From Escherichia coli (GTDB lineage: Bacteria > Pseudomonadota > Gammaproteobacteria > Enterobacterales > Enterobacteriaceae), in assembly GCF_965641715.1 (NCBI RefSeq), contig NZ_OZ282453.1: DNA of 64,000 nt; one strand, given 5' to 3'. The notes beneath the pieces are model-generated. The model had not been told where the DNA came from, searched no databases, and saw nothing but the letters and a program-made list of their open reading frames with translations. Made by a program: the position numbers and the translations under genes. Shown here piece after piece: positions 11,560 through 62,708 of this stretch; position 1 is the stretch's first letter, and each line of letters opens with the position of its first letter.

Positions 11560-11732
11560 AAAGTTCTTTGACGTTGCATTGCTGGCGTAAATGTCAGCAA
11601 TGCAGCATTTCCTCACGATTCTCCTTTGACGATCGCACTTTTTGCTCGTTATGATGGCGTCGCTAGCCTCAGTAAATCCTTACTCCGGCGGTGCGCAACC
11701 CGTGCGCGTGAACCACTATCTGAATGCTCATC

Positions 11733-32161: not shown

Positions 32162-32244
32162 ATAAAAAAACCTGCTGGTGAGGCAGGTTCTTTTATTTAC
32201 TACTTTGATGTTAAGTTACTGATACTGCAACATGGCATCTCAAC
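32162..32244 (-). ncRNA. orzO: putative type I antitoxin sRNA (OrzO-like)
   Basis: minus-strand promoter TTGCAA-17 nt-TATAAT; 5' end is a 19-nt near-direct copy (17/19) of zorO 5' UTR positions 32392-32410, so the RNAs can pair; 3' end at hairpin ACCTGC/GCAGGT plus U-run. Confidence 0.5.
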
Positions 32245-52730: not shown

Positions 52731-52757
52731 CCCCCTCTCTCCGAGGGGGCTTTTTTT
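52731..52757 (+). terminator. intrinsic terminator after yehA
   Basis: CCCCCTC-tctcc-GAGGGGG hairpin followed by TTTTTTT. Confidence 0.8.
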
Positions 52758-53094
52758 AGCGATGATAAAAAATCTCACCGTCGTAGGCTTTAATGATTTT
52801 TCCGTCGGTATTATTGATCAGCACATATGCACCGCCCATATAGGTCCAGTGGGTTCCGGCGTCAGGTGCGGGCAGGTTACGCAACTGCCACTGCTTAATG
52901 TTGTACTCATCGGTACGGTACATCTCTGGTACGGTGTCACCTGGTTTGAAATGCTTGAAGTCAGCAATGAAGCTGCTTAACTCATACTTTGAAATTCCCG
53001 AGGCATTGGTCGAACCCGCGGTGGCTGGTGCGGCCCATGCTGCGCTGGTTACCAGCAAAAGCGCACCCAGCAACATCTTATTTTTTATGGTCAT
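52756..53094 (-). CDS. rcnB: periplasmic nickel/cobalt homeostasis protein RcnB
   Basis: start at MTIKNKMLLGALLL with GGAGAG RBS; 112 aa with signal peptide. Confidence 0.9.
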   Translation of the reverse strand: MTIKNKMLLGALLLVTSAAWAAPATAGSTNASGISKYELSSFIADFKHFKPGDTVPEMYRTDEYNIKQWQLRNLPAPDAGTHWTYMGGAYVLINNTDGKIIKAYDGEIFYHR

Positions 53095-54163: not shown

Positions 54164-54200
54164 GATAATAATTCTTAGTATTAATTCGGCAATCTTATTC

Positions 54201-54235
54201 TACTCCCCCCCAGTACCTGATACTACCCCCCAGTA
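54201..54235. promoter_or_regulatory. two tandem RcnR operator sites (TACT-C7-AGTA and TACT-AC6-AGTA)
   Basis: matches the TACT-G6-N-AGTA RcnR recognition pattern (reverse strand), in the rcnA-rcnR divergent intergenic region. Confidence 0.85.
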
Positions 54236-54283
54236 GATTAATAGTGCTATGATTTTTCATGTTCTTGTTAACCAGGTGTTGCC

Positions 54284-54556
54284 ATGTCTCATACAATCCG
54301 TGATAAACAGAAACTGAAAGCGCGTGCCAGTAAGATTCAGGGCCAGGTCGTGGCGCTCAAGAAAATGCTCGACGAGCCGCACGAATGCGCTGCAGTTTTA
54401 CAACAGATTGCTGCTATCCGTGGCGCGGTAAACGGTCTGATGCGGGAAGTGATTAAAGGTCATCTGACGGAACACATCGTTCACCAGGGGGATGAGCTAA
54501 AACGTGAAGAAGATCTGGATGTTGTTCTGAAGGTGCTGGATTCATATATCAAATAA
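54284..54556 (+). CDS. rcnR: Ni/Co-responsive repressor RcnR (CsoR/RcnR family)
   Basis: 90 aa, [21 protein letters not shown]. Confidence 0.93.
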
Positions 54557-54644: not shown

Positions 54645-54778
54645 CAACCAAACGACTCGGGGTGCCCTTCTACGTGAAGGCTGAGAAATACCCGTATCAC
54701 CTGATCTGGATAATGCCAGCGTAGGGAAGTCACGGACCACCAGGTCATTGCTTCTTCACGTTATGGCAGGAGCAAACT
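54645..54778 (+). ncRNA. TPP riboswitch (THI-box) leader of thiMD
   Basis: conserved THI-box CTGAGA...ACCTGATCTGGATAATGCCAGCGTAGGGAA; expression platform overlaps the thiM RBS GGCAGGAG. Confidence 0.9.
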
Positions 54779-62595: not shown

Positions 62596-62708
62596 GTAGG
62601 ACGGATAAGGCGTTTACGCTGCATCCGGCAACCTATGCCTGATGCGACGCTGAAGCGTCTTATCATGCCTACACAGCGCTGCCACGTATGTTTACACTGC
62701 ATCCGGCA
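62596..62708. repeat. BIME with three REP units
   Basis: GTAGGACGGATAAGGCGTTTACGCTGCATCCGGCA, GCCTGATGCGACGCTGAAGCGTCTTATCATGCCTACA and partial TGTTTACACTGCATCCGGCA. Confidence 0.75.

Follow-up and report, generated by a model that had tools for sequence, protein, structure and literature searches.

The Ni/Co efflux switch formed by the Ni(II)/Co(II) sensor RcnR, its tandem operator and rcnAB is a well-characterised model of the CsoR/RcnR family, and the operator from which RcnR acts has been described in some detail. In the literature, tandem sites of the form TACT-G6-N-AGTA are assigned to RcnR, with one tetramer per site (PMC3902906; PMC5146963). The same two papers credit the G-tracts of such sites with conferring A-form character on the DNA, a character that is described as part of site recognition by RcnR (PMC3902906). 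Further papers describe a shared operator through which RcnR represses both rcnA and rcnR (PMC7055735, citing Blaha et al., 2011), a divergon of rcnR and rcnAB in which RcnR also controls its own expression (PMC7689651), and the dissociation of RcnR caused by Ni(II) or Co(II) (PMC7105576). Expression circuits that respond to cobalt or nickel employ this switch as a component (PMC7105576). For the RcnR of Salmonella, two tetramers were found per DNA, and metal lowers the affinity for DNA at least 90-fold (PMC5709419). A text search of PMC4528141 turned up no account of the operator. For the operator of E. coli K-12, which is identical to the one described here, reporter fusions and gel shifts have already been published (Iwig and Chivers, 2009; Blaha et al., 2011, both as represented in papers that cite them).

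We analyzed a window of 64,000 nucleotides of Escherichia coli DNA (the whole stretch, at its full length) in which positions 54201-54235 very probably hold two tandem type-1 operator sites of RcnR, a reading to which we assign a probability of about 0.96 (Table 1). This assignment draws on the sequence, on identity to K-12, on start-site geometry and on cross-species association, while binding, stoichiometry, metal release and autoregulation are taken from the literature. The operator reads ttattc TACTCCCCCCCAGTA cctga TACTACCCCCCAGTA gattaat in the window, and on the minus strand TACTGGGGGGGAGTA and TACTGGGGGGTAGTA are both exact matches to TACT-G6-N-AGTA, in which a 4-bp inverted repeat surrounds an unbroken G-tract. 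A first-pass annotation had reported two such 15-mers on the opposite strand, 5 bp apart, and its coordinates and sequence agree exactly with those found here. From centre to centre the two sites are 20 bp apart in the window sequence, or about two helical turns, as against the 19 bp given in one paper (PMC5146963). The operator sits inside the 120-bp gap that separates rcnA on the minus strand from rcnR on the plus strand; that this is the rcnA-rcnR divergent region, as the first-pass annotation had also held, is borne out by profile matches that identify the flanking genes as rcnA and rcnR.

Table 1. Features of the rcnB-rcnA-rcnR locus, in window coordinates; transcription starts are those of K-12, with their K-12 positions and read counts.
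Feature	Position	Strand	Details
rcnB, periplasmic Ni/Co efflux modulator	52756-53094	-	downstream of rcnA; Pfam PF11776 RcnB at 68.9 bits, K-12 annotation
rcnA, Ni/Co efflux permease, 283 aa	53312-54163	-	NCBIfam NF007454 at 570 bits, Pfam NicO
rcnA major transcription start	54190	-	27-nt leader; K-12 2183912, 25 reads
rcnA -10 box TAGAAT, major promoter	54197-54202	-	-12 to -7 from 54190
RcnR operator site 1, nearest rcnA	54201-54215	-	plus strand TACTCCCCCCCAGTA, minus strand TACTGGGGGGGAGTA, G7 tract
rcnA minor transcription start	54211	-	inside site 1, 48-nt leader; K-12 2183891, 12 reads
Spacer CCTGA between sites 1 and 2	54216-54220		5 bp
RcnR operator site 2, nearest rcnR	54221-54235	-	plus strand TACTACCCCCCAGTA, minus strand TACTGGGGGGTAGTA
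rcnR extended -10 box	54245-54253	+	TGCTATGAT; -16 to -8 from 54261
rcnR transcription start	54261	+	23-nt leader; K-12 2183841, 11 reads
rcnR, Ni(II)/Co(II)-responsive repressor, CsoR/RcnR family, 90 aa	54284-54556	+	NCBIfam NF011613, Pfam PF02583

The cognate repressor gene adjoins the operator and is intact. Its product scores 197 bits over residues 1-90 against the NCBIfam RcnR equivalog NF011613 (cut-off 138), is 100% identical to K-12 RcnR and, by direct reading, contains His3, Cys35, His60 and His64 as well as the RASK motif, all of them listed in PMC3902906. The genes of the locus follow the order known from K-12 (thiD-thiM-rcnR / rcnA-rcnB-yehA), and no terminator-like site was found when one was sought between rcnA and rcnB. 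Downstream of rcnR, a TPP (THI-box) riboswitch at 54648-54744 on the plus strand (Rfam RF00059, 71.2 bits, gathering score 54.3) is followed by thiM and thiD; the K-12 thiM start in Kim et al. (2012) leaves a 150-nt leader, consistent with a TPP riboswitch. In O157:H7 Sakai, a 2.1-kb insert of three genes lies between rcnR and thiM, an insert that neither the window nor K-12 has. At the other end of the locus, between the convergent yehA and rcnB, a GC-rich hairpin is followed by a T-run (CCCCCTCTCTCCGAGGGGG CTTTTTTT) at 52731-52749 on the plus strand; it is likely the yehA terminator and may work in both directions. The other Rfam matches above the gathering score lie elsewhere in the window, and comprise a Peptidase-S11 cis-regulatory RNA (11648-11728, plus strand, 72.8 bits), an OrzO-P antitoxin RNA (32164-32237, minus strand, 88.8 bits) and naRNA4 (62599-62669, plus strand, 64.5 bits).

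To place the operator among those of other strains, we compared the locus with K-12 and with other Escherichia genomes. In an alignment with MG1655, the 120-bp intergenic region differs by two substitutions only, both 15-mers and the spacer CCTGA being identical. The first is at 54196, where the window has T and K-12 has G, which corresponds to position -6 of the rcnA promoter; the second is at 54261, where the window has G and K-12 has A, corresponding to +1 of the rcnR promoter. None of the complete E. coli genomes contains the identical 120-bp region (best match 99.2%), and the region is present at an identity of at least 95% in 5,360 of 5,426 of them. The first-pass annotation had further proposed autoregulated, metal-inducible expression of rcnA-rcnB and rcnR; identity to K-12 in both the operator and RcnR, taken together with the literature, argues for such control in the window as well. 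On a larger scale, the 24 kb from 40000 to 64000 of the window reach at most 97.2% identity to any of the 5,426 complete E. coli genomes, and over an 11-kb locus the identity to Escherichia sp. E1V33 amounts to 97.3%. The segment from rcnA to rcnR shows 90-95% identity to most E. coli genomes, for much of which the cytoplasmic His-rich loop of RcnA (residues about 121-155) probably accounts: this loop is 9 residues longer in the window than in K-12 (283 aa vs 274 aa for the whole protein) and also carries several substitutions, and the remainder of the protein is nearly identical to that of K-12.

Across species, the exact tandem pattern TACTNCCCCCCAGTA-N(3-8)-TACTNCCCCCCAGTA was sought in 100,044 genomes, one per species; we estimate that about 1e-5 matches would arise by chance. 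This yielded 77 loci, and in every one of them tblastn places rcnR at 45-99 bp from site 2 and/or rcnA at 32-42 bp from site 1, oriented as they are in the window. At seven of these loci a single gene of the pair is seen, because the motif there lies within about 135 bp of an end of the retrieved locus and in many cases just a few bases from it. The lowest RcnR identity among the motif loci is 58% (Chromobacterium); Shewanella and Vibrio have 67-76%, and the highest value is 100%. The tandem motif is thus specific to rcnR/rcnA over a wide phylogenetic range, with the qualification that a set picked by exact motif match shows specificity and not the rate at which the motif is retained among rcnR loci. 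Separately, at three Shewanella loci (L005, L027 and L029) rcnR accompanies the tandem operator, and tblastn detects no rcnA homologue on the other side. Plasmid-borne loci found via the protein complement this set. On an Enterobacter IncHI2 plasmid (92% RcnR identity) both 15-mers are identical, with AAATA as the spacer and with other flanks; in Ralstonia (62% RcnR identity) one site is perfect and one degenerate; and beside dmeF in Halomonas an RcnR/DmeR-like gene is accompanied by two degenerate sites. The more distant of these protein-found loci show operator drift.

Three other explanations of the two motifs have to be weighed. The one that survives best, itself very improbable, holds that the sites are bound mainly by another protein of the CsoR/RcnR family, for instance FrmR, which senses formaldehyde. 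In favour of this, FrmR is a paralogue, the RcnR of the window also matches the FrmR model (76.5 bits), and FrmR likewise uses tandem type-1 sites with G/C tracts (PMC5146963). However, the arms (ATAC/GTAT), tract length (9 bp) and centre spacing (31 bp) of the FrmR operator are all absent in the window, the motif accompanies rcnR/rcnA in 77 of 77 loci, and the literature assigns it to RcnR (PMC3902906; PMC7055735; PMC5146963). We consider it still less probable that the C/G tracts act by DNA structure alone, without a repressor, through slipped-strand phase variation of promoter spacing, a G-quadruplex or an i-motif. Two G-runs cannot make the standard four-run quadruplex, the tract lengths are equal in the window, in K-12 and in the protein-found IncHI2 plasmid, and the conservation of the TACT/AGTA arms calls for a reader that recognises sequence. 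What speaks for a structural role is that G runs of seven and six lie within promoter spacer regions and that the literature attributes A-form character to such tracts (PMC3902906; PMC5146963), yet that character belongs to RcnR site recognition and is no alternative to RcnR (PMC3902906). With regard to chance, TACT-G6-N-AGTA occurs with up to 2 mismatches only twice on both strands of the window, namely at sites 1 and 2, while 100 dinucleotide-preserving shuffles gave a mean of 0.14 such matches and only 1 of the 100 reached two; two exact matches 5 bp apart are far beyond chance. A chance match without function, the weakest reading, has the short length of each motif in its favour and nothing further, and is dismissed in view of the excess of exact matches over the shuffled expectation, of a tandem arrangement that recurs in 77 species, always beside rcnR/rcnA, and of identity to the characterised K-12 operator.

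With RcnR as the preferred reader of the two sites, we examined how the operator lies relative to the promoters. Transcription starts were taken from Kim et al. (2012; PMC3415461, Table S1), who give 50 nt of upstream sequence for each, and were placed on the window by sequence; they come from K-12 and not from the window strain, and their read counts are low (11-25). The two promoters lie back-to-back, with 71 bp from the major rcnA start to the rcnR start. Measured from the K-12 starts, site 1 occupies -25 to -11 and site 2 occupies -45 to -31 of the rcnA promoter (major start), so that both together span -11 to -45; for the rcnR promoter, site 2 occupies -40 to -26 and site 1 occupies -60 to -46, which together span -26 to -60. 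Site 1 ends with the two bases that open the rcnA -10 box TAGAAT. In the rcnR promoter a -35 box cannot be recognised, since the C-tract of site 2 occupies its place. A promoter scan had offered other candidates, both of which conflict with the measured starts and were rejected: for rcnA, TTGCCG-16-TATTAT, directly against the ATG, would start transcription within the coding sequence, and for rcnR, TTAACC-18-TACAAT (54268-54297) overlaps the start codon. As a separate observation, Kim et al. (2012; PMC3415461) list two starts inside rcnA (K-12 2184331 and 2184572, NC_000913.2) with 2 and 3 reads, which they assign to rcnB (yohN); these hint at weak internal rcnB promoters in addition to co-transcription with rcnA.

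This arrangement, read together with the published behaviour of RcnR, leads us to propose the following mechanism. When Ni and Co are scarce, one apo-RcnR tetramer would occupy each TACT-G6-N-AGTA site. Of the rcnA promoter, the 35-bp operator covers the edge of the -10 box, the spacer and the -35 region; of the rcnR promoter, which relies on its extended -10 box, it covers the -35 region. As the operator covers both core promoters, bound RcnR would keep RNA polymerase off both, and the geometry thus suggests repression by promoter occlusion, with two tetramers on the two core promoters. Upon binding of Ni(II) or Co(II) to RcnR, its affinity for DNA would fall, and the efflux pump genes and rcnR would be de-repressed.

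In addition, we observe conserved details that go beyond the published motif. The 'N' of the motif is nearly fixed, and differently so in the two sites: on the plus strand it is C in site 1 (76 of 77 loci) and A in site 2 (77 of 77), which on the minus strand gives G in site 1, where it completes the G7 tract, and T in site 2. The spacer, 5 or 6 bp in length, varies in sequence among the 77 species and has A as its last base in 76 of 77. An inverted pair is formed by the conserved outer flanks, which read ATTC ahead of site 1 and GAAT past site 2; the A at -4 is invariant. Specifically, TAnnnT is matched in all 77 loci by the hexamer on the rcnA side, made up of the TA of AGTA and four flank bases, and in only 38 of 78 by its mirror image on the rcnR side. 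The conservation of the rcnA-side hexamer fits the measured rcnA -10 box, and since the TAnnnT of rcnA begins in every case with the two bases that close site 1, sigma-70 and the repressor would both be reading those bases.

On the rcnR side, 42 of 78 loci have a TGnTAnnnT that begins 10 bp past site 2, and 21 more have it at +27 or +28. Eighteen loci, belonging to Enterobacter, Klebsiella, Lelliottia and Kosakonia, show a third site at +7 to +21 after site 2, and all 18 are among the 21 with the extended -10 box at +27/+28, so that their rcnR box is shifted by 17-18 bp. This third RcnR-like site takes two forms. It is inverted (TACTC[A/C]GGGGGAGTA) in L012, L015, L037, L046-L048, L052-L054, L061, L072, L074 and L075, which belong to Enterobacter, Klebsiella and Lelliottia, and direct with altered arms (AACTCCCCCCCAGTT) in L038, L045, L051, L060 and L064, from Kosakonia and relatives. 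The fixed 'N' bases, the flanks, the shared -10 box and the subset with a third site might, as a tentative and on balance doubtful reading, point to a functional unit that is larger and more constrained than the pair of TACT-G6-N-AGTA motifs. If true, this could refine the operator model to a modest degree, provided that the primary papers do not already describe such points. For the design of RcnR-based sensors, the pattern offers something of use, namely a spacer that is variable, 'N' bases and outer flanks that are conserved, and a -10 box built into the edge of the operator. For the window genome itself, the findings indicate an intact K-12-like Ni/Co efflux switch, consisting of RcnR, the tandem operator and rcnAB, which matters little beyond correct annotation.

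Finally, we compared the operator with the closest known systems. Type-2 CsoR operators, such as that of Streptomyces lividans CsoR, serve a repressor that belongs to the family of RcnR, and affinity there too depends in important measure on a GTA dyad (PMC3902906). They differ in having two short interrupted G/C tracts 2-4 bases apart, AT-rich repeats with about 11 bp between them, a single site that takes up two tetramers, and Cu(I) as the signal (PMC3902906), whereas each site of the window has one unbroken tract of 6-7 bases and 7 bp between its arms. The DmeR-dmeF system resembles the locus in that an RcnR-like repressor stands over a Ni/Co exporter (PMC7689651), and on Halomonas pHAL1 two type-1-like sites lie upstream of the regulator. 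Unlike RcnA, however, the exporter is the CDF protein DmeF and is transcribed in the direction of the regulator, and the C-tracts of the pHAL1 sites, ATACTGCCCCCTATTAT and ATACTATCCTCCAGTAT, are broken. The FrmR operator of E. coli, located at the promoter of frmRAB, is likewise a tandem type-1 operator with a G/C tract and short AT-rich inverted repeats, and it too overlaps its promoter (PMC5146963). It is set apart by its ATAC/GTAT arms, its 9-bp GC-rich tracts, centres that are 31 bp apart and its formaldehyde signal (PMC5146963), while in the window we find TACT/AGTA arms, tracts of 7 bp, centres 20 bp apart and the rcn genes alongside. As for the rcnR-rcnA operator-promoter of Salmonella, Salmonella diarizonae (L044) has the same two 15-mers, with TGTAA as the spacer in place of the CCTGA of the window. 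The rcnA-rcnR operator of K-12 (Iwig and Chivers, 2009; Blaha et al., 2011) shares the 15-mers, the spacer, the placement and the RcnR protein. Judged by sequence, the operator is therefore the already known pair of tandem RcnR sites, and the window carries the operator and the repressor of K-12.
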